Origin: a virus
Lineage: Duplodnaviria; Caudoviricetes
Virus record (IMG/VR): IMGVR_UViG_3300014208_000023
Location: 32,001-96,000 of that record
Length of the DNA stretch: 64,000 nt
Reading direction: 5' to 3' (one strand)
The position numbers and the translations under genes are program-made. This document shows positions 20,769 to 35,672 of the stretch, piece after piece. The notes beneath the pieces were generated by a model. That model was not told the origin of the DNA. It saw only the letters and a program-made list of their open reading frames with translations, and made no database searches. The number at the start of each line of letters is the position of its first letter. The first letter of the stretch is position 1.

Positions 20769-20792
20769 TAGAAGGCGGAGCCGAAGCTCCGC
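20769..20792 (-). terminator. cUUCGg hairpin with CTTCTA tail
   Basis: Minus strand GCGGAG-CTTCGG-CTCCGC-CTTCTA directly after the stop of 20800-21096. Confidence 0.65.
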
Positions 20793-23700
20793 ATCCTAAT
20801 CATCCGATGTAGATGTTTCCCTCTTCGGAGATATCCACGCTGTATCTCCCTTCGTTGTCTTCGGTCTTACGCAGAAGCACAATCAGCGCTTGCTTATCTG
20901 CCTTGACCCAAGTTTTCCCTTCCTTGAAACCATCCTCACTTACCGTGAGAATGACTCCAACATACACATCTGCGCCGACTGATACCGTTGCCAGCGTCTC
21001 TTTGCGAGTCATCAGCATGACATGAGCCTTGCGAGCGGCTTCTTGGTTCCGCTCATCATCAGCCGCTTCTTGTATCCACAACCGATGTTGATACAATTGA
21101 AGTAGAAGACGGCCTTTGCGAGATCGGCCTTGATTGTGTATCGGGACTTGTAGGCACCCTTCACATGCCTACCGACTTCTACGGTAAAGACCGTCTCCGA
21201 CGAGAATGCGATCGGCTTACCGTTGAAGTTGGCGGTAATGATTCTCACCTGCTTATCGTCTTCCGGCATCTTTTTCACTCCTGTATATCCAGCAATGACT
21301 ACCATCAGAAAGGCTTTCCGGGCTCACCCTTCCAGGTGTAGGTGGACTTGATATCCTTGACGGGATTGGCTTCCGAGATTGCCGAATAGATGCTAGTCCA
21401 TCCGTTCTGGCTGAGAAGCTGAACCTCATCACGATTGAGAAGAGAGGCATTCTTCAGAAAGGCCGGATGGGCAGGAACCCAATGGCGCCATTCGAGGTTG
21501 TGCAAGTAAAGAGACTCCATCTTGGCATCCCAATACCCACGCAGATACTCCTTAGCATGCACCGGAAGGTCTGTCCAGCGTGGATCGCTGAAAAGATCCT
21601 TCTCTCTCTGCTGTAGAAGAACTTCGTGTTTCGGCCGAGAGTAGATTGCCAGCAGGAAGATGTTGCAAACTCTCTCCGCAAAAATCTTCTTGCGCTCGAT
21701 AACCTGATTGGTTCTCATTAGAGCTTCACTCCTAGATACGGATGAACATGACCGGCCGGGAAGTGGCCTACGTCATTGACCGCACCACAATAAGGGCACG
21801 GTGACATTGAAAGGTAAGGCGGCTCGGTCCTCAAGTCAACCACCCCACCGCGAGGAAGTTTCCATGCAACATCGATACCGTTCGGGTCGGTAAAGACCGT
21901 GATGCCGTCTTCTTCCGTACGGCAAGTTACCCGTACGAATGTTTCCGGCTTCGCCTTAGCCTTTCGTTTCTCACTCATCGGAGCTTGAAAACATAGTCGT
22001 CCCATGCCTCTTCTAGATCGTTCCAGGTTTCTGAGCCGAGATAGAAAGACCCGTCCGTTGCGTCGATACTTCTACGGCAGAAAGCAGCGAAGTAATCTTT
22101 GTGACTAGACGAGTGAATGGTTGCGGCGGCTTCTTTGATCAGCTTATCGTAAACACGCTCGCTGATTCCATGACCGATCACCTCGGGGCTTAGACCATCT
22201 TCGATGATCTCCTCTGACTGGACTGCACCAGGATAGAGACCCCACGACTTGAAGAATGCACGAACGCTAGTGAACGGGGCCAGCATGTTCTTACTTGCCA
22301 TTCATGCTCCGTGGTAGGTGACGAGGATCCATTCGACAAGATCCATGTTGAACTGAGCGATCCAGATAGGATGATTCAGATGCATCCACTCGGCCGTCTC
22401 TTGCCTGTAAGAATCGTTCAGACGAATCCCAGGCCTATCATCGGCAGCAGCGGCGGCCAAAGAGTAATACTTGCTTACGGCCGCCTTGAGAATTTCCGAG
22501 TTGAAGGCAGGCGCGAGATAGTTACCGCGAGCATACTCCGTCAGCGCGAAAGTATGGCCGGGAATGTTCTCCTTCGCCCACTCGTAAGCCTTAGCCTTAC
22601 TAGCGAAGCATCCTCGGGTAATGATGGAGAACGGGCCGGACTTCTCCGTAGGATGCCACTTCGTTGCTCCAACATGAACATAGGAGAGTAGAATGCTCCA
22701 ATACGTTCGCGGGTCTTCGACGTTGCAGTTACAGACCAGCTCCGTTTGATTGCAGTGAATGCAGAGACTCATTCCTCATCCTTAGTCCTCTCCGATAGAA
22801 GAGGTGGTAGTGAGACATTCTTCGGAAGCTACGCACCGGACTGTAGTAACAATCCCGGCAAAGCCTGTAGTCGGAAAGAGGGTGTAGGTCTTCTCCTTTA
22901 CACCCGAGAGTGCTGCACTTCAATTCTCGCCTGAGTAAGAGTGACGCTTGCACTCCTTAGCTTGAGCGACGGCCGCCACTTGCGAGTCATGCGAGAAGTA
23001 GTATTGCCCAACCGAAGGACAGGTGCAAGGCCGAGATAGCACAATTCTTTTGCAGTCTTCGTGAGTGCAATCGATCATGCCGCATCGGGCAGAAGCCTTG
23101 GAGCAATTACGCATCATCAATACTCCTTTGCGTACCATTCGATACAGGTGATACCAGGCTTCACTTCTCCGTCAGAAGTGAGAATCTTGACTACATCGGC
23201 TCGCAGATAGTAGCAAACCAATTGAGTCAACCTCGTGCGCCAATCGTACCCTTCGCGAGTTTCCATGTCAGCAGGGTACTGCGTAATGAAACTAGGACAC
23301 GTGATGTTGGAGACGATGATGTTTCCTTCCACGCTCTTATGGACAGTCCAATCATCCGTATGTGGCTCCCCACCGATACCTTTCGGGTTATGGACCGTCC
23401 ACGTTTCCAGCAGAGAAAGCTTCGCGGTAGGGGTCAGTTTCATTCGTCCTCGTCCTTATCCGCGTTATGAACCACGAATCCGCCCCTCTCACATAGGGGA
23501 ATGATTTCTGACTCAGGAGGGGATTCCAACTCTCCCTTGTTCGGATCCATCAGTTACTCTCTTGCAGCTTGTGGGCCGCTTCGAGCTTGGCGAACCCTTC
23601 TGCGTGAGAATTGAATACCTTACAGGCATCCGATCCTTCTTCGCCACGATAGGACCTTTCGCTCTCGTGGCTATTGGGTTTGCTCACGTCTACCTCATAG

Positions 23701-24336
23701 ACCACGACATCATCGCCCTGCTTGAGCAATGAGATCACGCGGCCACATGCGGTGTTGGATTCGATCAACACCGCACCATCAGGAAGGTCTGCGCGACTCT
23801 GGCTGATAATGGAATAGATCGCCTTGATCTCTCCACCAACCGCGACACCGGCATGATCCCGCTCGACCTTGACTTCACTCATTGGGAGTTTCCTTTTGCT
23901 TGGGCGGATACAGAAGCCAGGACGAAGTTACCGGTCCAGGCTCTCTACGAATTAGTCCTGCCCGAAGACAGCGACTAACAACATCATAACCAGCCGATTG
24001 TCCAGCGCCAGCCTCTTTTGCAGCTTCGCGAATAATCTTGCCGGGATTCTCAGTAACAAACTGAATGACCTTTTTCATCTTAGGTCCGATCATATTCCCT
24101 CGTGAGCTAACTCTTTATCCCCGGCTAGACTATCAATCTAGCCGGGGATGGTCCGCTCCGTAACAGGCAACCGAATTGGCAGCCTAAAGAGAATGGTTAC
24201 TGACATAGACAGGCTTCTATGGCTGGAGTCCAAAATAGCCTCCGCCTATTCCATATCTGCTAACAAGGATACTACCCGGCCCATATGCTACGGATGAGTC
24301 CGTTAGCGTTACCCGTGGTTCGCGTTACCTGTTAGC

Positions 24337-24364
24337 ATTGTAACCACACTCTTTAGAATGTCAA
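24337..24364 (-). promoter_or_regulatory. Sigma70-type promoter
   Basis: TTGACA-16 nt-TACAAT. Confidence 0.75.
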
Positions 24365-24484
24365 TAGACTATCCCTCCCGATTATCCCATAATCCGTTGC
24401 AACGGCTTGGGGTCGGGAGGGGATCTCCACTACACAATTACTAACTTAGGAATGAGAGTAGCTACTTCTCATAACCATTACAAC

Positions 24485-24632
24485 GAACGGCCCTCATCAG
24501 TAACCGCTTCACGGTTATACGTATTCACCATAGCGCCTGGCCTTTGATACTTGATCAGTTCCTAGTTAGGAAGCCAGTCTGTTGGAATGCCACCTACGTT
24601 CAGTCGTAGGCGTGAATACGTTACGGCCTCTC
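24485..24632 (-). ncRNA. Type II hammerhead-ribozyme-like element (core variant)
   Basis: Stem III 10 bp perfect, GUA triplet, stem I TAACCG/CGGTTA, CTGATGA core, stem II GGCC/GGCC; GTAA instead of GAAA and one extra G. Confidence 0.6.
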
Positions 24633-24728
24633 ACGTGTCTTTGAAGCTTCCCCCATACCCAGACGTTCCGGGGGAAGCATTAGCACCCATAGGGAAGCTT
24701 ACGCTTCCGGTAGTCTAGGGCTGTTCTC

Positions 24729-26487
24729 CTAGGCTTTCCAGCGACTCTCTTTCAGAGGAGAGCCATTGAAGGATCGCCACTCACGAAAGTATCGTCCCTT
24801 GGAATCCCTTTCGTTGTAGTTCGGGCGGACGATTACCGCCTTTCCCTTTGCACGCAGACTCTCTCCGAGAGAGATTGCGTGTTCCAGGTTGGTGAATGTC
24901 GCATCCACGAAACGATCCCCGTATGTGGTAAGATCGCCAACGCACTTACAGGTGATTACAGAGATAGTAGCCTTAGCCATTGAGCCTTGGTCTCCTGGTA
25001 GCTTCTTTTTTTGAACCATCCCCATAGAGACAGGGGCCTAAGCTCCTGTTTACGTCGCTTGGTTGCCTTGATCCGATTGTGATAGATCGCCATAGCCGTG
25101 TGACCACTAAAGAGCCACTTGATCGGAGAGATCATTCCTTGCGTTTGATACCTACCGTACTGCTTCATTCCTTGCCCGCATTGGCAATGATGTTATGGCA
25201 GATTGCTCGGTAGTGCGCAACCACTTTCGGATCGTTCGTGACCTTTCCGGTGCCGGGAATGAACTTCCACTGGATGAACTTCCATGCCAGCTTGTACCTA
25301 CGATCCTGTTCCGGTGTGAGAAACGAGAATAGCTTTCTCGCTTCAACTTCTCTGTCAGAGAGACTCATGTTACGAGAGCTTTCTTGGTGATAGAGTCGGC
25401 CACTTTCTTGAGAGCGAGCACTTCGGCTTCCGCCTTCTCAGCTCTAGCCGTGAGCCTACGAGTAGCAGAATCCGATCCATCGATGAATGCTTCGTTGATC
25501 ACGCGGAACGTTTCGTTGATCTCGTCCTGATCGCGAAGACTCAGATAGTCCTCGATGGTCATGCACTCGTTGACGCAAGCCACATGGTTGAGCTTGTTCA
25601 GGAAGTACCAGGATGCGTAGGAAGTCGTGTTCTGGCAAACCCAGGAACCGGCACCCTCATTCCACGATCCATCCTCTTCTTCGTAACAACCCTCTCCGAT
25701 GTAGCCGAGCGGAAGCGTGAACTTCCGCATGTAGTAACCATCGAAGTTGGCCTTATTACAGATAGCGACGTAGGTGCGAGAAGGTGAAGAGACGATCTTC
25801 TTTTCAGACATTACTGCCTCCTAATTCGGGCCTGTAACAACTTCTGTGTAGCACATGGGTTTAGATTTTACGAGCTATCAGAGGAGACTCGAACCCCTCC
25901 AGCCATGGACTTCACATTATATGCTACAAACCCGAATTAGAAGGGGGAAGGTAGTTAGTCTTCCCCGATCCTTTCTTACTGATAGAGCCAGGCATTGACT
26001 GCCCGGCGAACCTCCGTGCATGCAGCCCGAACATCGAAGGCATTGATCGTGTGCTCCATCACAAGAGGAGGAGGAATCTTGCCCTCCTTCTTGAGAGACA
26101 CCACAACCTCACCCACATACGGATTCTTCGGAATCATTCGACTCTCCTACTTGAACCAGCGTCTAGCTCTTGCTCGGAATGCACGAATCGCTCGTTTCAG
26201 GCAAAGAGAACAATGCCTGGCGTCTCCTTCCTTCATGCCTTGAACTTCTCCATGAGAGCCTTGGCATCCGGGTAGCCGAAAGGTTTCAGAGCCTCCTCGG
26301 CTTGTTCCAGAGCTTTCGGATCGTTCTCGCGTAGAAACGCATTGATCTTCGGGTCGAGAACCATCATCAGTAGCGTTCGAGCCGCTGACTTGCCCTTGCA
26401 CTCTTTCGGGGGAATAAGCTTCTCAATAGCAGCTTGCCTTTCGGGACCGGGAGGAGGCAACATGATGCCATGTCCAGTGCCAGCCAT
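24729..26487 (-). other. Hypothetical CDS (24729-25025, 24956-25168, 25165-25368, 25365-25811, 26233-26487)
   Basis: Contiguous ORFs with strong AGGAGG-type RBS. Confidence 0.7.
25817..25944 (-). promoter_or_regulatory. Long-stem leader element with internal T-loop hairpin; sequesters the RBS of 25365-25811
   Basis: Arms 25817-25830 / 25931-25944, inner stem 25846-55 / 25919-28, GAGGGG-TTCGAGT-CTCCTC. Confidence 0.65.
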
Positions 26488-26677
26488 CAGTGTTGCCCCA
26501 ACGTCTTACGTAATCCTCGATTACCAGACCCAGCGTAGCCTAGGCTGCGGTAGAAACCTCTTACGTAGGCTTCCCAATGTGAGAAGGTAGGAAACTCCTG
26601 CTTGAACCTCATACAATCTTTGGAGGATTGTTTCTGACGTTGGCCATCACTGCGACCCAATTCGCTCGACTGACGCA

Positions 26678-27010
26678 TTAGTGCTGCCCCCACGTCTTTC
26701 CGCCATCGTGAGAATGAACACCAGCAGCGATTGCCTTGGGATTGACCTTTCGTCCGCTCATTCCCTCGGCCTTGAGTATCGCCTGACGGAGAACCCACGA
26801 GTTAGTGGCCCGAAGAGAATTGAAGGCACACACGTCAGAGATACCGTCCCGATCCTTCCATCCTTGGAAGACGATCGCGCCGTTCGTTCCGATTCCGATT
26901 CTCACGGTACCGGTCTGAATGTACTGTTCCAGACGCTTGAGAGCTTGTTCCACTTGAGACATTCTCTGAGTGAGAGTCTGACCCTGAGATAGCGCTGTCA
27001 TGCACGCCAT
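26678..27010 (-). CDS. Conserved-type hypothetical protein (GVHSHDGG.TW..H C-terminus)
   Basis: GAGGT RBS; third gene of the AAA module. Confidence 0.75.
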   Translation of the reverse strand: MACMTALSQGQTLTQRMSQVEQALKRLEQYIQTGTVRIGIGTNGAIVFQGWKDRDGISDVCAFNSLRATNSWVLRQAILKAEGMSGRKVNPKAIAAGVHSHDGGKTWGQH

Positions 27011-27033
27011 TGTGATTACCTCGTTTGAGTTAT

Positions 27034-27140
27034 CCTTCTAACTCTATTCAATAGACATGCGCCAGATAAGCTCCGGCCTAGTTCCTATCTGAATCTATTG
27101 AATAGAGCTAGAAGGGGGAGACTTGGTTAGAGTCTCCCCT
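27034..27140 (-). repeat. Intergenic long-stem element plus GGGGAG hairpin
   Basis: Arms 27034-27055 / 27094-27115; homologous to 27999-28118. Confidence 0.8.
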
Positions 27141-27146
27141 CATCTA

Positions 27147-27977
27147 TCAGTTAGAAAGATCTAGAGAGTCGTCCGCGGCCATGGGATTCAGGGCCATCGT
27201 TCCGGCGACGGTTCCGACTTCTTCGGAGAAGTCGAGATCCTGCGCCGCCACTTGCGGAGCCTCCTCTTCTTTCGTGAGCGTAGGCGGTTCCTCATAGTCG
27301 AGGAACACTTTCTGAGCCTTCTCCAGTGCGAGAAGACTGACGCGGTAGTCCTGAACCACGTCGATAGCGACCGATCCCTTCTTCTTGATCGTCTTCGCCA
27401 TCTCACGTGCGGCGGTTCGTGCAAGCTCGATTGCAGTCCTCGCCTCGCCCTGTTCCTTCTCTTGCATCATCTCGGCCAGTTGATTGGCCTTAGCGATTGC
27501 TTCCCGAATGGCCTCGGGATCCATCTTGTTGATCGCCCCGCTCATCTCAGCGAGAAGACTGCGCATCTCTCCGGCGATTGCCATTGCAGTCTGCTCGTCG
27601 TTGGCGAGAAGCTTTGCCTTGAGGATGTAGAAGCGCACCTTCGTGTAGACAGACTTCGCATTGAAGTCGTCCATGAGTTGCCGGGCGATCTTGATTCCCT
27701 GGTCCAGCTCCGCCTCCTTATCTTCCGGGCAGAGAAGACAGAACGGAGTTTTGACGCAGAGACGACGGATCTGGTACAGGACATTGCCCCGCACCTTGAC
27801 CGCTTCCTCGTGCTCCTCCACGTCGAAGATTGTCTTCTTCGTGGTCTTCTCTTCGGTGAGCACGCCTTCGGTGCTCTGATCGCTCTCCTCGTGGAGAGTC
27901 TCGTATTCGATACCTCCCTTCATGCGGGAAGTCAGTGCGATCATGAATCCGGGTCGAAGCAGTTGCATCTTTGCCAT
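27147..27977 (-). CDS. Helical/coiled-coil hypothetical protein associated with the AAA ATPase (start revised to MAKMQ)
   Basis: GAGG RBS 5 nt before ATG at 27977; long helical ORF with acidic tail. Confidence 0.8.
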   Translation of the reverse strand: MAKMQLLRPGFMIALTSRMKGGIEYETLHEESDQSTEGVLTEEKTTKKTIFDVEEHEEAVKVRGNVLYQIRRLCVKTPFCLLCPEDKEAELDQGIKIARQLMDDFNAKSVYTKVRFYILKAKLLANDEQTAMAIAGEMRSLLAEMSGAINKMDPEAIREAIAKANQLAEMMQEKEQGEARTAIELARTAAREMAKTIKKKGSVAIDVVQDYRVSLLALEKAQKVFLDYEEPPTLTKEEEAPQVAAQDLDFSEEVGTVAGTMALNPMAADDSLDLSN

Positions 27978-27998
27978 TGTGTCCTCGTTTGGAGTTAT

Positions 27999-28118
27999 CC
28001 CTCTAACTCGGTTCAATTAGACTCGGGCGCTCAACCAAGGGACAACGCCCGGTATATTGCTAAGCCACCACCTAATTGAACCGAGTTAGAAGGGGGAGTC
28101 TGTGTTAGAAACTCCCCT
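27999..28118 (-). repeat. Intergenic long-stem element plus GGGGAG hairpin
   Basis: Perfect 18-bp inverted repeat CTAACTCGGTTCAATTAG / CTAATTGAACCGAGTTAG. Confidence 0.85.
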
Positions 28119-28129
28119 CCTAATTGCCG

Positions 28130-29749
28130 TCAGTCCAGATCCAGCAGATCGTTGGAGCCAGACTTAGCGGCCACCTTCTCAGGCTTGCTTGCGCTCAGGG
28201 CCTTGTCTGCCATGAACGTACGAATCTCTCCGAGCTTGACCGCCATCGTCAGAGACAATGGTACCACATTCTCGGCCGCCGTCAAGAGATCCTTTGTCGT
28301 GATCTGACGTTCTCCGTCGTTGAAGGCCGCGAACATGGCTTCCGGGATGATGGAAGCAATCTCCGCGCCGACCCATCCTTCCGTTTTCTTAGTGAGAGCC
28401 GGAACGTCGATCCCTTCTACCCTACCAGACTGCTTGAGGCAGGTAGAGAGAATCTGTTCCCGATCCGTTGCGGTCGGAAGGTCCACCCAAAACACTTGGT
28501 CGAACCTACCTTTACGCATCAGCTCAGGCGGAAGTGCCCGAACGTCGTTTGCCGTAGCAATGACGAACACCGGGGCCTTGCACTCTTGCATCCAGGTAAG
28601 AATCGTTCCAAGCTGATCCTTGGAAACTCCGCCATCCTCACCACCGGCAGCCCCGAGAGACTTGTCGATCTCATCGAGCCAGAGAACGCAAGGGGCAAGG
28701 GCTTCTGCCATTGCGAGAGCCTTACGAATGCTGGCTTCAGAGTCTCCGACATACTTGGACTTGCGTGCTCCAAGGTCGCACTTGAGTAGCGGCATCTGCC
28801 ATGCGGAAGACACGCACTTCGCCGTGAGACTCTTTCCACCACCGGGAACACCGGCAAGTAGAATGCCCTTCGGAGACTTGAGCCCGTAAGCCCTTGCCGC
28901 CGCTGAAAACCCGTTCTTACGGATACTCAGCCAGTCTTTCAGGACTTCCAGACCGCCGACCGCTTCCATGCCGAGCGGATCGGGGTCGATCCATTCCAGC
29001 ACTTTCTCACGTGCAATGACTTGCTTCTTTTCGGAAGAGATCACTGCCGGGTCGATGCGCTTGAGAGTAACGAGACTCCGATTGAAGCAGCTCTGAATCT
29101 CGGCCGCCGACAACCCAAGAGCCGCATCGATTGCAGACTCACGGGTAGTTGCGTTCGGAATCTCCACCTTGGCCGGATCTAGGCGGAGAGAATCGAAGAT
29201 CCTTTCCACGTCAGAACGGTCAGGCATCGGGTAGTCGATCAGATTGGCCTGACCGATGAGATCCTGGGGAATCTCCGAAGACGGCGTGAGAATGACGATC
29301 GCTCTCTGTTCAGCAGAGGGGGACGTTCCCGCTTCCGTCGCCGTGTTCCGAATTGCCCGGAGAGTGATTGGATCCTTGAAGGCATTGATATCCTTCAAGA
29401 CATACAGACACCGATCTGGGACTTCGCGAATTGCCTGTAGGACCACGAGAGGATCCGTACAGGGCTGACCACCGCTAGAAAGCGGCGTGATGCTTGCAGC
29501 CTTCTTCTCTCCGTAAGAAGACTGCGCCTGAGTGAATCCGAGAGTGACGAGCTTTGTTTCGCCCTTCTCGGTTCCGTATTCCGTCAGACCACTCACGCAA
29601 TCCCAGAAGCGGATTCGCATGTTGGCCGGAAGGGCATTGATAAGCGCCCCTTCCACACGCTTCTCCTCACGAGAGGAGATCCAGAGAAGAGAGACTCTGG
29701 CACGAAGAAGTGCCGTAATCTCCGCATTGACCTTTGCAGATCGAGACAT
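28130..29749 (-). CDS. AAA+ ATPase, Ycf46-like
   Basis: Walker A GVPGGGKS, Walker B VLWLDEID, SRH ATANDVRALPPELMRKGRFD; degenerate N-terminal AAA-like domain. Confidence 0.93.
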   Translation of the reverse strand: MSRSAKVNAEITALLRARVSLLWISSREEKRVEGALINALPANMRIRFWDCVSGLTEYGTEKGETKLVTLGFTQAQSSYGEKKAASITPLSSGGQPCTDPLVVLQAIREVPDRCLYVLKDINAFKDPITLRAIRNTATEAGTSPSAEQRAIVILTPSSEIPQDLIGQANLIDYPMPDRSDVERIFDSLRLDPAKVEIPNATTRESAIDAALGLSAAEIQSCFNRSLVTLKRIDPAVISSEKKQVIAREKVLEWIDPDPLGMEAVGGLEVLKDWLSIRKNGFSAAARAYGLKSPKGILLAGVPGGGKSLTAKCVSSAWQMPLLKCDLGARKSKYVGDSEASIRKALAMAEALAPCVLWLDEIDKSLGAAGGEDGGVSKDQLGTILTWMQECKAPVFVIATANDVRALPPELMRKGRFDQVFWVDLPTATDREQILSTCLKQSGRVEGIDVPALTKKTEGWVGAEIASIIPEAMFAAFNDGERQITTKDLLTAAENVVPLSLTMAVKLGEIRTFMADKALSASKPEKVAAKSGSNDLLDLD

Positions 29750-29811
29750 TCGTTTTCTCCCTAAAAAGAGATTATCTACGATAGAGTCTGTAACGTTCCT
29801 CCTACCTTGAG

Positions 29812-29840
29812 ACTGTAACTCATACGAGCTAGAGTGTCAA
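29812..29840 (-). promoter_or_regulatory. Sigma70-type promoter embedded in an inverted repeat
   Basis: TTGACA-17 nt-TACAGT; flanked by arms 29798-29814 / 29833-29849. Confidence 0.7.
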
Positions 29841-29880
29841 GGTAGAAGGGGAGGATTGCGCCTCCCCAACTACCGATCGG

Positions 29881-30063
29881 CTACTTCGTGTAGACGTTGA
29901 TCCCGATCTTCATGCCCATGTCGGAAACGTCCGGGGGCGAAACCGGGCCTTCCGTGGTAGCGACGATGGTGGTCTTCCCGCTGGCAGAAGGACCGAACTT
30001 TTTGGTCAGGTCGATCTTGATCACGAGGATATCACCCTCGCGGCTCATCTGAATGTTTTTCAT
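29881..30063 (-). CDS. Small conserved-type protein (FGPSASGKTTIVATT...IGINVY)
   Basis: Motif recalled from a widespread ~60-aa hypothetical family; start revised to MKNIQ. Confidence 0.7.
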   Translation of the reverse strand: MKNIQMSREGDILVIKIDLTKKFGPSASGKTTIVATTEGPVSPPDVSDMGMKIGINVYTK

Positions 30064-30091
30064 TGACTTGGACTCCCGATTGTGAGTGAGA

Positions 30092-30349
30092 CTACGAAGA
30101 GAGATCCTGGAAAGGAATCTCCTTCTCCACACGCCTACGGTTCTCCCTGATCTGCCGTTGTAGATCCTTGATTGCGTTGTCTGCCGTGTTACCTGCGCCG
30201 GTAAAACCGATGCAAGCCTTGACCGCTTGCCAGAGAGGTTTCTTACCTCCTCTGACTTTCTGGCAAGTCACATGCCAGTAAAAGGGAACCGGCTTCACTT
30301 GGGATGGCTCGTGATGGTGAATGCCGCACTCCACGCCTTGATCCCCCAC
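30092..30349 (-). CDS. Hypothetical protein (HicB-like GNTADNAIKDL segment)
   Basis: G-x-T-x-x-x-A-I-x-x-L pattern only. Confidence 0.45.
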   Translation of the reverse strand: MGDQGVECGIHHHEPSQVKPVPFYWHVTCQKVRGGKKPLWQAVKACIGFTGAGNTADNAIKDLQRQIRENRRRVEKEIPFQDLSS

Positions 30350-30398
30350 CTACCACCATAAAGGTGGTTCATGCGGAATTGCGTGGAAGCGGCAACGA

Positions 30399-31037
30399 TC
30401 ATGCCTTCGATGATTGCTTCCATCTGATATCCACAATACACATTGCGGATCCTTTCTTGCGCTTGGCGTTGCTTTCGAGACCTTGAGACACGTAGGGACG
30501 AACAGAAACGATCTTGGCTCCTACGTCAGAACAGGACTGACGCAGATAGTCAATCCGACCATCCAGATCGGAGAAGCCATCATCCCGGCCGTTCCTAAAG
30601 GTAACAAGAGTCTTACCTTTGTACTTGGCTTCGGTCAAGGCCTGTAGGACCGGAAGTGCAATGTGGGTCGCTTCTACGACATTGCAAGCCAGATCGATAT
30701 CGACGGCCCCGAGATTCTTAGCCCCACGACGAATGAGGTAAGGGCGAATCATGTCCTGAATGGGCCGGTGAATAGGAGGAAGTATGTGTAGGCGCGACTT
30801 CAACTTGCGGAAGTCTGGAATCACATACTCGGTTGCCTTGATCACTCCAATGTCGGTATCGACCACTTGGATCGCACCCTTCCACCGAAGGACATTCAGC
30901 ACCCCCAAGAGACCGTGACTGATTGTTAGAATCTCCTTGGTAGGAAGAATCTTATACAACCACTCACACCTCTCATTGTCTTTGGCGTAGGAGATCGGAG
31001 TGTGCTGCATTGAGCACACATTGTTCCGCTTTCCCAC
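30399..31037 (-). CDS. SAM-methyltransferase-fold-like protein
   Basis: IQVVDTD, AVDIDLAC, TLVTFRNGRDD; aligns by eye with 15387-16070. Confidence 0.45.
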   Translation of the reverse strand: MGKRNNVCSMQHTPISYAKDNERCEWLYKILPTKEILTISHGLLGVLNVLRWKGAIQVVDTDIGVIKATEYVIPDFRKLKSRLHILPPIHRPIQDMIRPYLIRRGAKNLGAVDIDLACNVVEATHIALPVLQALTEAKYKGKTLVTFRNGRDDGFSDLDGRIDYLRQSCSDVGAKIVSVRPYVSQGLESNAKRKKGSAMCIVDIRWKQSSKA

Positions 31038-31431
31038 TTAGACCTGAGCCGAAGCCCAGACCACGAAGCATGCCAGACCGACGAAGATCAGATTGGCCCC
31101 GGTGATTGCGTAACCACCGACAACCATGGCGACGTGATGGATGCTCGGGAACCAAGTCCCGAGAAGACCGAGAAGCAAGATGCTTCCCAGAGTGAGGAGA
31201 ACGAAGACGATTGCGTTTGCCATTGTCCCTCTACTTGTGAGAGCCGGAATCGTATCCGGGCGTAGGTGACTCAGCCCAACGGAGAATCCTTTGATCTTCC
31301 GCCTGCTTACGCTCCTCCTCCCTCTGAATCCCGGTTTGCACGCCTTCGACCGTATGAACGACCTTGACGAAGCCTACCACGAACACGAGAGTGACGCCAA
31401 GAACAATCAGACAGAGAATGAGCTTGAGCAT
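31038..31431 (-). other. Two small membrane proteins (31038-31223, 31231-31431)
   Basis: Hydrophobic TM segments, RBS present. Confidence 0.7.
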
Positions 31432-31606
31432 TGATTCTCCCTTAGAAACAACTAGAGGCAGTCTAACGCGCTACACATTCCTAGACGTTCGGCCTTCAGT
31501 GACCCTTACTAGATCCAGCCGAGGCTAGATGCTTCAGGAGTATGCACGCCCTAGTTATCCGGTAGTGTTTTTCTCACATACGTTTTCATGTATGTGGCGC
31601 ATTAGA

Positions 31607-31731
31607 ATCCCTCTAATCAAGTCCCAAGAACACTTGCCATTGTGATCCTGCTGCTAGTTAGACTAGAGGAGGTTTCCAGACGAGCGGCATGGAACTTGAT
31701 TAGAGGGATGAGAGGGATCGGCCCCTCATCC
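31607..31731 (-). repeat. Intergenic long-stem element plus hairpin
   Basis: Arms 31607-31624 / 31691-31709, hairpin 31704-31731. Confidence 0.7.
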
Positions 31732-32466
31732 GTCTATGTCAGAAGTACGGCTTAGGCTTCTTACCTTTGCCGAGGTTGATGTTCTGGATGAGAAGCTCCT
31801 TAGCCGCCTCATCCAACTGAGAGGTGTCGAGAGGAAACTCCCCCTTGTACGGGGGAGAATGCTCCTCGGTCTCGTGCTCCTCATCGGGATCGAACCTACG
31901 CGACTTGCCCACTTCTACTTCGCCTTTCTACGTAAGAGTACGAACGTTCCCAGGAGTAGCAGACCAACACATCCAAACGGTTGCGGCGGCTTGCTTGACC
32001 TTGGAACAATCAGGGATTCGGTTATTGTGGAGAACCGATCGAGCCATTGCGGCGATCAGTAGGTCTCCAATCGTGGACGAGCACATCATGCTAGCATCCA
32101 CGATAGCAGTTTGTCAACCAAGAAGTCACTCTTGGACCTACAGCGCGGATCGTACTGAGGCTTGTAAACCACAACCAATCCGCACGGGTCTTCCAAGCAA
32201 CCCTCGGGAATCCACGCCCACGACCAGCAGCGGCGAATGTCAGGTGTGGTTGAACATTCGCCGGCTTCGACTAGGGAAGCCAATTCGTCCTCGGAAGGAA
32301 GACGACGTTGGGGGAATGGGGGAAACCCATACCCTCACGCTGGAAGGGGTCGGCGGCAACAAGAGCCGCTTTCAGATCCTTGACCTTGACCATACCAAGC
32401 TCTGCCTTGTGCTGAGCGTGGAACGGGCAAGTGTGCTGTCTGCAATCGTGATCCATATGTGTGGAT

Positions 32467-32612
32467 CCTCCTCCGTCTCAACTAGATACGACCGGGAGCC
32501 TTTCTAGAATGCTCCTAATACTGGGGGAAAGTCTGGCAGTTGGGTTAGTGTCCAGTAAGTCCCCTGTATGTAGTTGAGACGGAGAGGGATGAGGGATTGG
32601 TTAGATCCCTCC
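32467..32612 (-). repeat. Intergenic long-stem element covering the RBS, plus hairpin
   Basis: Arms 32467-32489 / 32566-32588. Confidence 0.7.
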
Positions 32613-32796
32613 TCACCTACTCACGGCTTCGGAATCTCCAATGACTTGATCCTCTCACCAGAGGTAGTCATGGAATGAGAAGTGTCAACCTTGCCGTTCT
32701 CGATTACCCTAGACACCCAAAGATCCGCATCCGGGTAATAAGGACAGTGAGAAACAACGACGTAGACCGTGGAGTGTTCCCGAAAGAACTTCCCGA

Positions 32797-32994
32797 TCAT
32801 TCGACGTGCGCGATCTGAAAGACCTCTTCGGTCTCTCCGTCAACAAGCAACTCCTTCACCTTGTACGTGTGAAAGAGATGCTCACACTGAATAGCCGGGA
32901 GAAAGTCTCTCTCGACTTCAGCAAGATCCTTGGCCCGTACGATCCTGACTTCCAGGGCGCACGGACCTTTGGCAGTGAGAACGAACAACGCCAT
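32797..32994 (-). CDS. Hypothetical protein
   Basis: GAGGAGGT RBS 6 nt before ATG. Confidence 0.75.
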   Translation of the reverse strand: MALFVLTAKGPCALEVRIVRAKDLAEVERDFLPAIQCEHLFHTYKVKELLVDGETEEVFQIAHVE

Positions 32995-33000
32995 GATGTT

Positions 33001-33123
33001 ACCTCCTCGCTATTACCTCTATCCGCAAGGGGTATTAGCTACCCCATCACCGCCCAGCTTTCTAGGACATAGTGGCATCTAGAAGTAATAGCGAGAAGGT
33101 AGAAAGGCTATGGCCCTTCCACC
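33001..33123 (-). repeat. Intergenic long-stem element covering the RBS, plus hairpin
   Basis: Arms 33001-33021 / 33080-33100, both mismatches G-U on the minus strand. Confidence 0.75.
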
Positions 33124-33227
33124 TATCTCCGAATGAGAGTAGGGCCGCGTTGGTTAGCGGGCGGTCTCATTCCCTGGTAGTGAGAGTGTAGGGAGCGGCG
33201 GCCCCCTACACTTTAGGCTGCGATGAT

Positions 33228-33797
33228 TCACGCCGACTTCCTCTTCTGAGAATTGCTCTCAGTGAGCCAAGCCGGACGGGGCTTCGACTTGTAGGCTTCC
33301 AACCTCGCAAGTCTGGCTTTGCGGGTCTCCTCGCTTTCCATCTTGGCGAAAGCTTCCGCTTCCAAGGTCGGAGAGACCGGGGGCGGGGTCATGGGCTTGT
33401 CGAGAGCAGGCGGCGGAATGAACCGCGCTTGCTCCCGAACAACCGGAACGAACGTGTGAGGAGCGCGAACAACCTCGCGCTCCTTCTTCGCGAGCTTGGT
33501 AGCCTCGCGCTTCGCCGTGGCCGATGCTTTCTTGGCATCGACCTTGGAACGCTCCTCCGGCGAGAGAGCGTTGTAAGCGGCGACCTTGGCTCGCTTCCGA
33601 GTCTTGATCGCTCGCTTCTCGGCGTACTCGGCCGCCAGCGCCTTCCGCTCCTCGTGAGAGAGGCGGATCTGCTGGCCGGTTGCGAAGTCCCGTCGGTAGT
33701 ACGGGATTCCCATCGGCAACTTCGGCTCGCTCGGTCCCTCGGGCACGACTGCAACCGCGAACGGTAGCTGAAACCTCGGATGCGTTCCGATATTCAC
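33228..33797 (-). CDS. Basic Ala/Lys/Arg/Pro-rich hypothetical protein, first gene of the left block
   Basis: AGGAGG RBS + GTG; biased codon usage. Confidence 0.8.
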   Translation of the reverse strand: MNIGTHPRFQLPFAVAVVPEGPSEPKLPMGIPYYRRDFATGQQIRLSHEERKALAAEYAEKRAIKTRKRAKVAAYNALSPEERSKVDAKKASATAKREATKLAKKEREVVRAPHTFVPVVREQARFIPPPALDKPMTPPPVSPTLEAEAFAKMESEETRKARLARLEAYKSKPRPAWLTESNSQKRKSA

Positions 33798-33827
33798 TTG
33801 AGCCTCCTAGCAATTAGGTTTGACCAC

Positions 33828-33937
33828 CTATCTCTACCGGTAATAGAGGAGAATTGACTTATTGCCGCTACAAGAGACGGCATCCTTTATTACCAGTAGA
33901 GATAGAAGGGAGAGTCACACTGCCAATGTGACCCTCA
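33828..33937 (-). repeat. Intergenic long-stem element plus hairpin
   Basis: Arms 33828-33850 / 33883-33905, hairpin 33905-33937. Confidence 0.7.
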
Positions 33938-33939
33938 CC

Positions 33940-34730
33940 TCCTACCCTTCGGGACCACTTATCTACGACGCCTTACGTCTCTCGCACCTCAGTCTCACCG
34001 AACCTAACGACTAGCCTGTAAAGCCAATCTGTCAGCTATCGCCTCACGTCTTCCCGGTACTAGATTAGCCATCCCAAGGGCGGCCCACCATTCCCAGGCA
34101 TGTAGACATTACTACGATTGCCTTTCTTAGATTCAGGAAACCTTGGATAGAAAGCACGTTGCCTCCGTCCTTAGCATCCCAGCGTAATCCGGCTCCAATC
34201 CTCCTATTGAAGCCTACGTATGGCGGTTTCTTAGACCTAGACCATCCCACTAGCTTGCTACTCATCCCTTGATTGTCCTATCGGATTGACTATTCAGCGC
34301 GGTACCTCTAAGGCCAGCGAGCTTGTCAGGCTCACACTCCAAAGACGCACGTTGCTTAGGCGATCCACCTTTCGGTGGCTGTCGAAAGTCTCCTCAGTCT
34401 AGCTACTCCTCTAGTCGCGCCGGCCGTTCCCTTGGAAACGGTTAGCACCTATTGGAGCCTTTGAAAGATTCAACTTTCCTGGCCTTAGTTCGCGATAGGA
34501 TCGAAAGGACCCCTTGCTTACTAGCGTTCGGTGCCGGGAACGGTTCCGGCGCAGTTTCATTGCTTGCTAGTAGGAAGCCCCTACTAGTCCGAGCGATATA
34601 TCCTCCGCTACCCGACTTTACGGGTAGTTACGGATTATGGCTGTATCGGGATAAACCCCACTACCCGTTAGGGTAGCCGCCACCGCTAGCAATGCTTTTC
34701 ACGGGAGTTTCGGCCCCGTGTTCCCGTCTC
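33940..34730 (-). ncRNA. Large (~800 nt) structured non-coding RNA candidate
   Basis: Directly downstream of a consensus promoter, no credible ORF, many hairpins and perfect long-range helices. Confidence 0.7.
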
Positions 34731-34734
34731 AACT

Positions 34735-34763
34735 AACCTAGCACCTACGCGCTAGGCTGTCAA
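34735..34763 (-). promoter_or_regulatory. Sigma70-type promoter of the large ncRNA
   Basis: TTGACA-17 nt-TAGGTT with TG just upstream of -10. Confidence 0.75.
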
Positions 34764-34798
34764 GGTATGTTTAGACGTTTGAAAGTGTCGCCTTACGC

Positions 34799-34961
34799 GC
34801 TTTCCCTTTCTTCCGTCTCGCCGTTCACTCTAGCAGTGTTTGCTTTAGTGTCCAGCGGGTTTCGGAAGATTGTTTCGGCGCTACCTGCTTTCCTTTCTTC
34901 CGTCTCGCCGTTCACTCTAGCAGTGTTTGCTTTAGCGTCCAGCGGTTTCGGAAGATTGTTT
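34799..34961. repeat. Two ~75-bp near-identical direct repeats
   Basis: 34799-34875 and 34887-34961 (core CTTTCTTCCGTCTCGCCGTTCACTCTAGCAGTGTTTGCTTTAG). Confidence 0.95.
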
Positions 34962-35113
34962 AGCAGGTTTCGGCTTTGGTTCCTTTCTGGTAGCGACTCG
35001 ATAGCAGGTAATGCACGACCCTTGCCAACCTTGACCGGCCCTATCAATCTGCTAACTATGCGACATTGCTAGGCTATTCGGTTTCCGCTGCTACTGGAAT
35101 TGGGGTGGTGGGG

Positions 35114-35374
35114 ATTACTGCCACGGAAGTTTTTTTTATTATCTGTAACCTATTAGAATCATTACGGAAAAGTATCTTGTGTCAGAATTGTATCATTGGG
35201 ATCAATTGCTACAGTCGATTACAGTGCCAGCGGATAATTACAGTGCCAACGGAATTCGCCGTTCCCGTAGGGTGTGAGGGCTGCCGCCCCCAGGCGGCCT
35301 CCCCTACTCACAGAAACGAACAAGAATGATACGGTTAGGATACGGTTAGGATACGGTTGGACGGTTGGATGGTT
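35114..35374. repeat. Iteron-like and short tandem repeats
   Basis: ATTACAGTGCCA(G/A)CGGA at 35218 and 35237, variants at 35114 and 35161; GATACGGTTAG tandem decay series 35328-35374. Confidence 0.85.
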
Positions 35375-35393
35375 CGTATGCGGCTGGGATAGA

Positions 35394-35672
35394 CTATCTC
35401 AACCTATAAGACCCAAACTGCTTAATCGTCTTTCTTCTATGACAATTAGCACATCTCATCTGACATTGAGCTATTTCTGCCACTAACCTATCTAACGAAC
35501 AGTTATTGGTTATAAGCCTATTGATACCATAGGACTTCCTGCCTACGTGGTCAAACTCTAATACTACCGGATCATTCTCTCCGCAATCTACACATGGATT
35601 ACTTAATAGATATCGATATACGTATTCTCTTTTTATATCAGTTCTTCTTTTATCACCAATCTTGTCAGCCAT
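35394..35672 (-). CDS. Small HNH endonuclease
   Basis: PCVDCG..LEFDH...CQMRCANCHRRKT. Confidence 0.9.
   Translation of the reverse strand: MADKIGDKRRTDIKREYVYRYLLSNPCVDCGENDPVVLEFDHVGRKSYGINRLITNNCSLDRLVAEIAQCQMRCANCHRRKTIKQFGSYRLR

Follow-up and report, generated by a model that had tools for sequence, protein, structure and literature searches.

In a 428-kb groundwater phage, a three-part RNA module sits at the junctions between early genes, and it recurs in the phage's relatives. We read the module as an RNase III-type processing site that would also cap the 3' end of the upstream RNA and expose a Shine-Dalgarno sequence (SD), or an SD-like 5' stabiliser, on the downstream RNA; to this reading we assign a probability of roughly 0.5. 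That the elements act at the RNA level, on the sense strand and post-transcriptionally, recurring along the early operon, is supported, and the agent most likely to act on them is RNase III. The known RNase III sites of T7 and SP82 phages are similar, although here the architecture is new and the cutting itself is putative.

An initial annotation of the window (the 64-kb stretch of the phage record that was analysed) had described eight intergenic elements sharing one architecture on the minus strand. All eight were found where it had placed them, and 8/8 fold as a G-rich hairpin followed by a CCUUCUA-type arm and a long stem (Table 1). The long stems given as 14-23 bp with inserts of 18-100 nt are real, although the uninterrupted lengths measured 13-24 bp and the inserts 26-86 nt. 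The set is larger than eight, with a further member at 20589-20792 of the window (20589-20802 in Table 1) and another at genome 26650-26720, outside the window. The description "system-wide" was too strong, as the family is limited to a GC-rich early block (genome ~52.5-66 kb) plus one outlier.

From its 5' end, the module consists of a short purine pseudo-arm of UUAGRRG type lying 0-25 nt past the upstream stop codon; a G-rich hairpin of very high stability, whose loop is often UUCG, GNRA or the 7-nt CUAAYCA; a pyrimidine arm of CCUUCUAA type, the first strand of a perfect helix of ~20-24 bp whose sequence is unique; a variable, non-conserved filler; and the returning arm, with UUAGAAGG or UAGGAGG at its end. 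In one sub-class the base is CGGUCUA/UAGACUG; the layout is the same, with arms that are not SD-like. Most hairpins begin 0-25 nt past the stop codon of the upstream gene; the distance from the 3' arm to the next start codon is either 1-9 nt or 21-32 nt.

Table 1. Elements of the window (window coordinates; stem lengths are uninterrupted base pairs with G-U counted, unless noted).
Element	Coordinates	Strand	Pseudo-arm	Hairpin	Stem	Cargo (nt)	3' arm and context
E1	25817-25978	-	AGAAAGG, overlaps upstream stop	25966-25944	23 bp; 5' arm 25944-25922, 3' arm 25839-25817	82	3' arm UUAGGAGG = SD of gene starting at 25811; cargo contains a T-loop-like hairpin
E2	27034-27146	-	UAGAUGA, immediately after stop codon	27139-27115, loop CUAACCA	23 bp	36	gene's SD (ACGAGG) outside stem; ATG 27010
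E3	27999-28125	-	UUAGGAGG	28117-28093	24 bp	47	between AAA+ ATPase gene and 278-aa gene; SD free, ATG 27983
E4	29798-29874	-	GGUAG	29867-29848, loop CGCAAU	13 bp; ~22 bp via small internal loops		insert carries sigma-70-like promoter TTGACA-17-TACAGT (29840-29812)
E5	31607-31737	-	UAGAC	31731-31706, 4-nt overlap with arm	20 bp	63	
E6	32467-32620	-		32611-32591, loop CUAACCA	32585-32571 with 32484-32470, 15 bp; 20 bp with one A-C	86	3' arm GGAGGAGG = SD of gene at 32456
E7	33000-33129	-	GGAG	33124-33097, 5-nt overlap with arm	22 bp	58	3' arm GAGGAGG = SD of gene at 32994
E8	33827-33947	-	GUAGGAGG	33936-33910, 12 bp	19 bp; 22 bp with one U-U	42	between large ncRNA and first early gene (GTG 33797); SD outside stem
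Ninth member	20589-20802	-	UUAGGAU	20792-20775, UUCG-capped	CUUCUAAC arm, 14 bp	158	outside the range of E1-E8

On the minus strand, the eight elements fold with minimum free energies between -46 and -75 kcal/mol; compared with dinucleotide shuffles, their z-scores lie between -3.8 and -7.1. In a scan of the whole 428-kb record, stems of at least 19 bp with a 10-140 nt loop were almost confined to the cluster of E elements. A composite signature, defined as a stem of at least 13 bp with a GC hairpin immediately on its 5' side, was found 12 times in sense and 3 times in antisense orientation in 57 kb (~1 in shuffles), and ~54 times in sense, 12 in antisense and ~4 in shuffled sequence across the phage early block and nine related loci; the hairpin always lies on the 5' side in gene sense. 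Full-length matches to the covariance model R1 were restricted to the sense strand and recovered members outside its training set, among them E1 (E=4.6e-7); E8 (E=1.1e-3), E5 (E=0.048) and the ninth member (E=0.17) also matched. Helix length has a median of 20 bp (interquartile range 17-23), a length typical of RNase III substrates.

Most mismatches had been said to be G-U on the mRNA strand only, and with strand-symmetric detection seven window elements indeed hold 11 G-U against 2 A-C. Across 36 intergenic stems of the phage and its relatives in sense orientation the ratio is 51 to 15 (p=1e-5), so selection acts on the sense-strand RNA. The post-transcriptional part of the initial annotation's reading is supported. 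The same architecture, built from different stem sequences, occurs in relatives whose AAA ATPase is 73-91% identical. Covariation, for which the initial annotation had proposed a search across relatives, is present at the orthologous junction between the AAA gene and the next gene (alignment A1, the junction of E3), where a 20-bp stem has 99% of cells paired and compensatory changes at 13/20 pairs, scoring 0.724 against 0.228 in shuffles (0/500), while slid controls were 32-49% paired. Against strain L036 (90% nucleotide identity in the AAA ATPase gene), 6/6 arm changes in E3-E7 keep pairing and 3 are double compensatory: E5 has three pairing-preserving changes, E6 an A-U to G-C compensatory change and E7 identical arms. 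The inner stem of E2 differs from that of L036 mostly by compensatory changes, with its cargo replaced. Stem pairing is under selection, and its structure, direction and conservation are matters of observation.

Inserts at orthologous junctions are completely different, the close strains L012 and L015 each lack the element at a junction, and L036 has one (8149-8262) where the phage has none; such gain and loss among close strains means that the element is not essential at any one site. Inner stems can be replaced wholesale between strains; turnover at the DNA level would explain this as well, which counts against the processing reading; the inner part of E7 has 264 other letters in its place in a contig from another run. 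One relative, L017, carries an extra gene bracketed by elements.

The pseudo-arm, which the initial annotation had missed, is also complementary to the CCUUCUA arm. This complementarity is enriched (mean z -1.13, p=6e-7; 37% of elements at p≤0.05), although it is weak for E1-E3 of the window in a simple duplex test. The pseudo-arm is 86% paired at the orthologous junction, where the signal within the one alignment is conservation, not covariation, and by eye it tracks the alternative CGGUCUA/UAGACUG base. When a cut in mid-stem was simulated, the upstream fragment refolded onto the pseudo-arm in 7/8 elements, leaving 3' tails of 0-5 nt.

We infer the steps beyond helix formation, cleavage itself being a prediction. 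Between its cistrons, one long early transcript would carry the elements as sites of processing and stabilisation; it would start at promoters upstream of the ~800-nt ncRNA and run leftward on the minus strand. Host RNase III would cut both strands of the roughly two-turn perfect duplex, separating the ncRNA and groups of genes from one another. The pseudo-arm could then pair intramolecularly with the leftover CCUUCUAA and lengthen the capped hairpin, so that the upstream RNA would keep only 0-5 free 3' nucleotides, protecting it from 3' exonucleases, while the downstream fragment is released. A free, SD-like tract of purines would form the new start of the downstream RNA. This tract is the real SD in about one third of the elements (E1, E6 and E7 in the window), where cleavage would unlock translation; in the remainder it may act as a STAB-SD-like 5' stabiliser upstream of a separate SD. 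E4 forms a sub-type with a conserved sigma-70-like promoter as its insert, and transcripts begun there would lack the 5' arm. A point against this reading is that RNase III requires no conserved sequence, so that a secondary SD or stabiliser role or common descent must account for the conserved CCUUCUA/UAGAAGG base. The 13-15 uninterrupted base pairs of some members also count against RNase III processing. No phage-encoded RNase III, dsRBD or RegB gene was found. RNase III is near-universal in bacteria and has targets in phage SP82 (PMC4838370), it unmasks occluded ribosome-binding sites in adhE and lambda cIII (PMC5371410), and SD-like 5' stabilisers without a start codon are described, SP82 RNA among them (PMC3997798, PMC7509114).

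The initial annotation had placed the SD of the next gene in the 3' arm of three elements, and this is correct for E1, E6 and E7, whose start codons lie 5-9 nt past the arm. The anti-SD/SD gating that it proposed has a real basis in these 3/8 elements, but in the other 5/8 the gene's own SD is free, 21-50 nt or more downstream, and in relatives roughly a third of the elements hold a real SD inside the stem; translation gating therefore cannot be the general function. The long stem lies ~30 nt from the stop codon, too far for a terminating ribosome to open it, so another agent must open the three SD-containing helices (element dG -50 to -59 kcal/mol). E8 parts the ncRNA from the mRNA and masks no SD, which fits processing over gating. 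An uncleaved gate, in which intact stems would keep ribosome sites shut until a helicase, the large ncRNA or a trans-acting phage protein opened them, so timing early protein synthesis, is unlikely: it would suit the elements that keep their only SD within a 20-23 bp helix, the SD/anti-SD-like arms of most members and their position just downstream of the large conserved ncRNA, but it leaves out the non-SD-like CGGUCUA/UAGACUG class along with the free SDs. The ncRNA, which had been put forward as the unlocker, has no CCUUCU or UAGAAGG-type motifs. The rival hairpins proposed for refolding are present in E2, E3 and E8 but are not conserved across relatives, where they are 63% paired, show no covariation and do no better than shuffles. 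In nearly every bacterium a perfect helix of at least 20 bp would be a target of RNase III, and for it to stay uncut would need special pleading.

We regard as quite unlikely a ribosome-actuated device, in which either a ribosome ending translation of the upstream gene sits over the pseudo-arm and so sets whether CCUUCUAA pairs upstream or downstream, or the stem juxtaposes the stop and the next start for post-termination subunits to cross in a shunt-like coupling. Three mutually exclusive pairings do exist, the pseudo-arm lies 0-15 nt past the stop codon in most elements and the stem base brings stop and next start together; yet E8 follows the ncRNA rather than an ORF, E7 is ~80-105 nt downstream of its stop codon, a distance of 50-175 nt separates E4 and E5 from the next start (E5 is followed by ~170 nt without a credible ORF and then by a gene at 31431), the layout is unchanged in the non-SD-like class, and pairing with the pseudo-arm is far less stable than the full stem. 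It is very unlikely that the elements are primarily DNA palindromes, whether recombination or shuffling sites of the PeSL or attC-cassette kind or palindromic mobile inserts, with incidental RNA folding. Such an origin would account for the outer parts of E2 being a diverged duplicate of those of E3, for the E4-type module in another gene context in L011, for the gain and loss of elements and differing neighbour genes between 90%-identical strains, for the inner palindromes swapped wholesale and for the element-flanked gene of L017. The 51:15 asymmetry reflects selection on sense-strand RNA, however, and the fixed 5' polarity of the hairpin relative to gene sense is unexpected for cruciform or recombination sites; the genome has no tyrosine recombinase, attC core triplets (AAC/GTT) occur in only 3/8 elements without extrahelical bases, and L036 shows single compensatory substitutions inside otherwise unchanged arms. 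Highly improbable as a general rule is gating of the T4 gene e/soc type, with a promoter in each insert giving translatable transcripts without the 5' arm and leaving read-through silent. In T4, hairpins sequester the SD of genes e, soc, 49 and I-TevI (PMC3014915). An intramolecular helix likewise hides the SD on read-through transcripts here, and the promoter of E4 lies between the arms as in gene e, and it is conserved in L036 (TTGACA-17-TATAGT) and, within another gene context, at 9066-9116 of L011; but a sigma-70-type scan found a promoter in 0/7 of the other window inserts and no enrichment over shuffles, inserts at orthologous junctions share no motif, and the phage stems are much longer and perfect. 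We give very little credence to terminators or attenuators, with the capped hairpin terminating and the long stem anti-terminating or the reverse: a very stable GC hairpin does immediately follow stop codons and that of E8 was flagged by a terminator scan, but the tail past the hairpin is CUUCUAA rather than a U-tract, terminator-like sites were not enriched (7 found against 9.1 expected) and nothing terminator-like lies downstream of either conformer.

Among known systems, the sites R0.3 to R1.3 of the T7 early region are RNase III hairpins of ~50 nt that contain an internal loop and resemble one another in sequence. Bs-RNase III sites in the early mRNA of Bacillus phage SP82 are credited to Panganiban & Whiteley 1983 (cited in PMC4838370), and stabilisation of the downstream SP82 RNA by a purine, RBS-like tract past the cut to Hue et al. 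1995 (cited in PMC7509114, PMC3997798). As in T7 and SP82, stable helices of about two turns lie between the cistrons of a promoter-proximal, co-directional early operon, and the predicted products are mono- or oligocistronic mRNAs with a 3'-end hairpin. The elements show no sequence or Rfam similarity to these sites. Unlike those of T7, they combine a tetraloop-capped hairpin that stands apart, a pseudo-arm and a long-range stem, perfect over 20-24 bp and unique in sequence, which encloses 26-158 nt of non-conserved filler and whose cleavage is predicted. A long-range perfect duplex around a structured insert that would be excised recalls the rRNA operon stalks flanking 16S and 23S that RNase III cuts (PMC4838370), although the phage insert is no conserved functional RNA and differs completely between orthologous junctions. 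E1, E6 and E7 resemble adhE and lambda cIII (PMC5371410) in that a dsRNA nuclease could free their SD from the helix in which it lies, but they are a minority within a repeated operon-wide module and not a single leader. The SD-like tract that would lie at the new 5' end of E2, E3, E4, E8 and most orthologues without an adjacent start is reminiscent of the STAB-SD and polypurine stabilisers of cryIIIA and SP82 (PMC3997798, PMC7509114), whereas the UAGACUG-base sub-class has no such tract. PeSLs, the stem-loop/early-promoter cassettes of T4-like phages (PMC2839356, PMC4122927), are likewise repeated intergenic modules of early variable regions, and the phage elements also duplicate and border gene indels; a PeSL, however, joins a short terminator-like stem-loop to a sigma-70 promoter with conserved sequence, whereas the phage module is conserved in architecture and most of its members have no promoter.

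All eight intergenic elements (E1-E8) were read and folded on the minus strand, the gene sense, and, as the initial annotation had proposed, they share one architecture. A G-rich/C-rich hairpin directly adjoins a pyrimidine arm of the CCUUCUA or CCCUCU type (8/8), and 13-24 uninterrupted bp join this arm to a purine partner (UAGAAGG, UAGGAGG or UAGAGGG type) across an insert of 26-86 nt; minimum free energies are 3.8-7.1 SD below those of dinucleotide shuffles. The uninterrupted stem measures 19-24 bp in six of the eight, the E6 stem is 20 bp including one A-C, the E4 stem extends to ~22 bp via small internal loops, and the family median is 20 bp; the elements have the dsRNA helix of about two turns (~20 bp or more) expected of an RNase III site. 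In a genome-wide scan, stems of at least 19 bp enclosing a loop of 10-140 nt were found almost nowhere outside the cluster. The composite signature is strongly directional, with 54 sense and 12 antisense occurrences and ~4 in shuffles (early block plus nine related loci), and a whole-genome scan found it enriched only in the early block. Scanned against IMG/VR as an exact motif, the 5' module matched 18 unrelated hairpins that all lacked long stems, so the 5' motif alone is not diagnostic.

Further members, and a second module class seen in related loci and not in the window itself, are listed in the table. The base of the second class, CGGUCUA...UAGACUG followed by AAAGA, is not SD-like, and the capped hairpin with a matching pseudo-arm is retained.

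Coordinates of features discussed in the text (window, whole genome record or related phage locus; strand where recorded)
Feature	Sequence	Coordinates	Strand
AAA+ ATPase gene	window	28130-29749	
Further member	window	20589-20792	
Further member	genome	26650-26720	
CGGUCUA/UAGACUG class	L011	8194-8291	
CGGUCUA/UAGACUG class	L013	8360-8418	
CGGUCUA/UAGACUG class	L014	8496-8563	
CGGUCUA/UAGACUG class	L014	8993-9061	
Extra element	L036	8149-8262	
Region corresponding to the extra element	window	~26409-26678	
212-aa gene	window	30424-31037	
Stretch downstream of E5	window	31432-31606	minus
Perfect 10-bp hairpin (UGUAGGGGGC..GCUCCCUACA region)	window	33190-33213	minus
T-loop-signature hairpin in E1 filler	window	25870-25895	minus
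Three consecutive T-loop-signature hairpins	window	8516-8660	minus
Long stem among these three hairpins	window	8516-8617	
T-arm-like hairpins upstream of stems	L017	3300-3700	

The pseudo-arm is a feature absent from the first, sequence-only reading: a purine tract (UUAGGAGG, UUAGAUU, GGUAG and similar) that immediately precedes the capped hairpin on its 5' side, in most cases 0-15 nt past the upstream stop codon, and is also able to pair with the pyrimidine arm. Across the 54 sense-strand composite elements its complementarity to that arm exceeds composition-matched shuffles (mean z -1.13, p=6e-7), with p<=0.05 reached individually in 37%. At the orthologous junction the pseudo-arm is 86% paired, conserved and not covarying; in the four elements of the CGGUCUA/UAGACUG class it tracks the alternative base, as judged by eye. 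When a cut was simulated 11 nt from the stem base, removing the 3' arm, the upstream fragment refolded onto the pseudo-arm in 7/8, leaving 0-5 unpaired 3' nt.

Homologues of the AAA+ ATPase with 65-91% identity were found on groundwater, wastewater and soil contigs and in a second genome of ~431 kb. Gene order and module are maintained across the ten homologous loci that we compared, and stem sequences differ; the module architecture was not found in the distant AAA-ATPase relatives from IMG/VR (L003-L007, 41-47% identity), and the product of the neighbouring 278-aa gene has no relatives in IMG/VR. Where the ATPase gene meets its downstream neighbour, 8/10 orthologous junctions carry an element, and in the two element-free junctions the spacer is only 21-23 nt. 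We aligned the eight orthologous-junction sequences with the window paralogue E2 and a second element of the related locus L017 (A1), excluding from the covariation counts the 5' hairpin, whose arms MAFFT left out of register. Pairing reaches 99% over the 20 basal pairs, 13 of which changed on both sides, with a covariation score of 0.724 vs 0.228 in shuffles (0/500); slid registers, used as a control, are just 32-49% paired. A covariance model built from this alignment recovers members outside its training set (E1, E=5e-7; E8, E=1e-3; many in relatives), with full-length matches on the sense strand only.

The cleanest test of pairing conservation is strain L036, whose ATPase gene is 90% identical in nucleotides and against which E3-E7 show six altered pair positions with pairing kept in 6/6: three are double compensatory changes (A-U to G-C in E6, C-G to U-A in E5, G-C to A-U in E3) and three are G-U/Watson-Crick interconversions. 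Most of the inner stem and filler of E1 and E2 has been replaced in L036, complementarity still being retained. L036 also carries one more element of this architecture, and 485 different letters, at a position where the present phage has 268 nt. Elements and neighbouring small genes turn over together. Within the early block, a 212-aa gene without flanking elements is cleanly missing (613-614 nt skip) from contigs of three other runs.

The initial annotation had also held that most mismatches are of the G-U type on the mRNA strand only, which agrees with our counts. Using a strand-symmetric stem detector that accepted both kinds of transition mismatch, we counted 51 G-U vs 15 A-C in the gene sense (p=1e-5) among 36 intergenic stems, and 11 vs 2 in the window's own elements. 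From this excess and the fixed polarity of the hairpin it follows that selection acts on the sense RNA.

The canonical substrate of RNase III is an mRNA helix that is perfect over about two turns. The enzyme is present in virtually all bacteria (PMC4838370), and neither a phage RNase III (PF14622, PF00636) nor a dsRBD (PF00035) was detected in the 428-kb genome; a RegB search (PF10715) likewise gave nothing and is uninformative, since its controls matched nowhere. Host RNase III is the candidate cutter because the helix is its substrate, the enzyme is near-universal and the phage encodes none. The elements span stop to start on one strand, with one internal promoter only and terminators not enriched. 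Host RNase III would cut at every element, dividing off the large ncRNA and sets of closely packed genes, one to five per set. On the upstream RNA, the UUCG-, GNRA- or 7-nt-capped hairpin and the pseudo-arm would close off the leftover arm as a 3'-end cap, and the new 5' end of the downstream RNA would bear the SD-like purine arm as a real SD or a 5' stabiliser. An exposed real SD would resemble the ribosome-binding sites of adhE and lambda cIII, unmasked by RNase III (PMC5371410); a purine arm not serving as SD would resemble the SD-like 5' stabilisers of cryIIIA and phage SP82 RNA, as described in two reports (PMC3997798, PMC7509114). Putative RNase III processing fits every member, E8 included, and we give it about even odds (roughly 0.5), the steps beyond folding being our reading of the predicted structures. 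More tentatively, and clearly less probably, the element could act as a 'self-sealing punctuation cassette', a three-strand RNA device in which the pyrimidine arm is passed from the downstream purine arm to the pseudo-arm upon the cut, or handed over by ribosome position at the upstream stop. In one step the upstream mRNA would be capped, the filler freed and the downstream SD or stabiliser exposed, in a device specific to the ~430-kb phage clade and evolving by compensatory change and inner-palindrome swaps.

The initial annotation had placed the elements as anti-SD/SD gates of translation, and the buried SDs of E1, E6 and E7 would suit a gate that stays uncleaved until a trans factor opens it. 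In these three elements the SD is indeed inside the helix; as a general role gating does not hold, the functional SD lying outside the stem in E2, E3, E4, E5 and E8. The large ncRNA had been named as a possible unlocker and contains no CCUUCU-type or UAGAAGG-type motifs, which speaks against it as sponge or unlocker. The proposed refolding of an arm into a rival hairpin found no comparative support either: GAGUUA-loop-UAACUC is 63% paired in relatives, with no covariation and no better than shuffles. We consider such a gate unlikely; if the elements are uncut, a perfect SD-hiding helix of 20-24 bp would require an unknown opener, the more surprising outcome. A three-strand switch actuated by the ribosome, with the pseudo-arm just past the stop codon, or a bridge for reinitiation, is quite improbable. 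The upstream stop codon is ~30 nt away from the long stem, so that a terminating ribosome cannot open it.

Elements acting primarily in DNA-level shuffling would account for the turnover beside them. The attC core triplets GTT/AAC are present in 3/8 only and are not conserved, the stems are perfect with no bulged (extrahelical) bases, no tyrosine recombinase (PF00589) was found in the 428-kb genome, and the G-U asymmetry points to the mRNA strand; we reject the integron attC reading on these grounds and regard a primarily DNA-level role as very unlikely. Terminators or attenuators could be read from the capped hairpin, which is followed by CUUCUAA with no U-tract, and a terminator scan gave no enrichment of terminator-like sites; intrinsic termination finds no support here and this class of explanation has hardly any probability left. 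General gating through a promoter inside the hairpin is just as hard to credit: the E4 insert holds a sigma-70-like promoter (TTGACA-17-TACAGT), kept in L011 and L036, and a sigma-70 scan of the inserts found it in E4 only, so that a T4 e/soc-type promoter between the arms is no general rule and E4 is best treated as a sub-type like T4 gene e or PeSL (PMC3014915, PMC4122927). In a comparison with PeSL cassettes, the promoter occurs in the E4 type only, and indels and gains are seen beside elements. The inserts otherwise share no motif and differ wholly between orthologous junctions, and we therefore take them as filler and not as conserved small RNAs.

Rfam gave no match at the gathering score and nothing relevant, including no ribozyme family, at E<=1 (window 19000-35500), megablast found no similar DNA among GenBank phages, and neither source yielded sequence or model homology to described RNase III sites. 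No description of the module was found in the literature searched. In kind the elements correspond to phage intercistronic RNase III sites (T7/SP82 type), cleavage here being putative. New features are a tripartite design with hand-over of one arm, a base conserved on stems that are otherwise unique, and an inner palindrome that is rapidly replaced between strains of 90% identity, in a family confined to the early block of one huge-phage clade. With its strong covariation, the family is a clean one to enter into RNA-structure databases. If cut as proposed, the elements would form the first defined mRNA-punctuation system for an early operon of huge (>400 kb) environmental phages, a route from one long host-transcribed RNA, headed by the large ncRNA, to separate stable messages, and would give designers of synthetic operons a compact, modular piece of RNA that unites 3'-end cap, cleavable insulator and 5' ribosome site.

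The window covers bases 32001-96000 of the IMG/VR virus record, which is 428,320 bp long, derives from groundwater metagenomes and carries direct terminal repeats. Genes are on the minus strand throughout window 1-36000, and GC is 50-55% in window ~12-35 kb, the early minus-strand block, vs 33-40% elsewhere in the genome; homologous blocks of relatives are likewise GC-rich (48-52%). Downstream of E5, ~170 nt hold no credible ORF and include a strongly folded stretch kept in L036; a possible 15-codon ORF lies right after the E5 3' arm (AGAGGGA, 5 nt, AUG). A perfect 10-bp hairpin, also kept in L036, lies between E7 and the first early gene's stop codon. The tRNA T-loop signature GGUUCGA(N)UCC marks one hairpin in the E1 filler and three successive ones around another long stem; T-arm-like hairpins of similar kind precede stems in L017, and ARAGORN called no tRNA in any part of the window. 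One AAA ATPase, P0014 (67% identical), is listed under a transcriptome assembly of a eukaryote (EukProt 'Spiro4'), and because of this origin public transcriptome data may contain early RNA of a relative.
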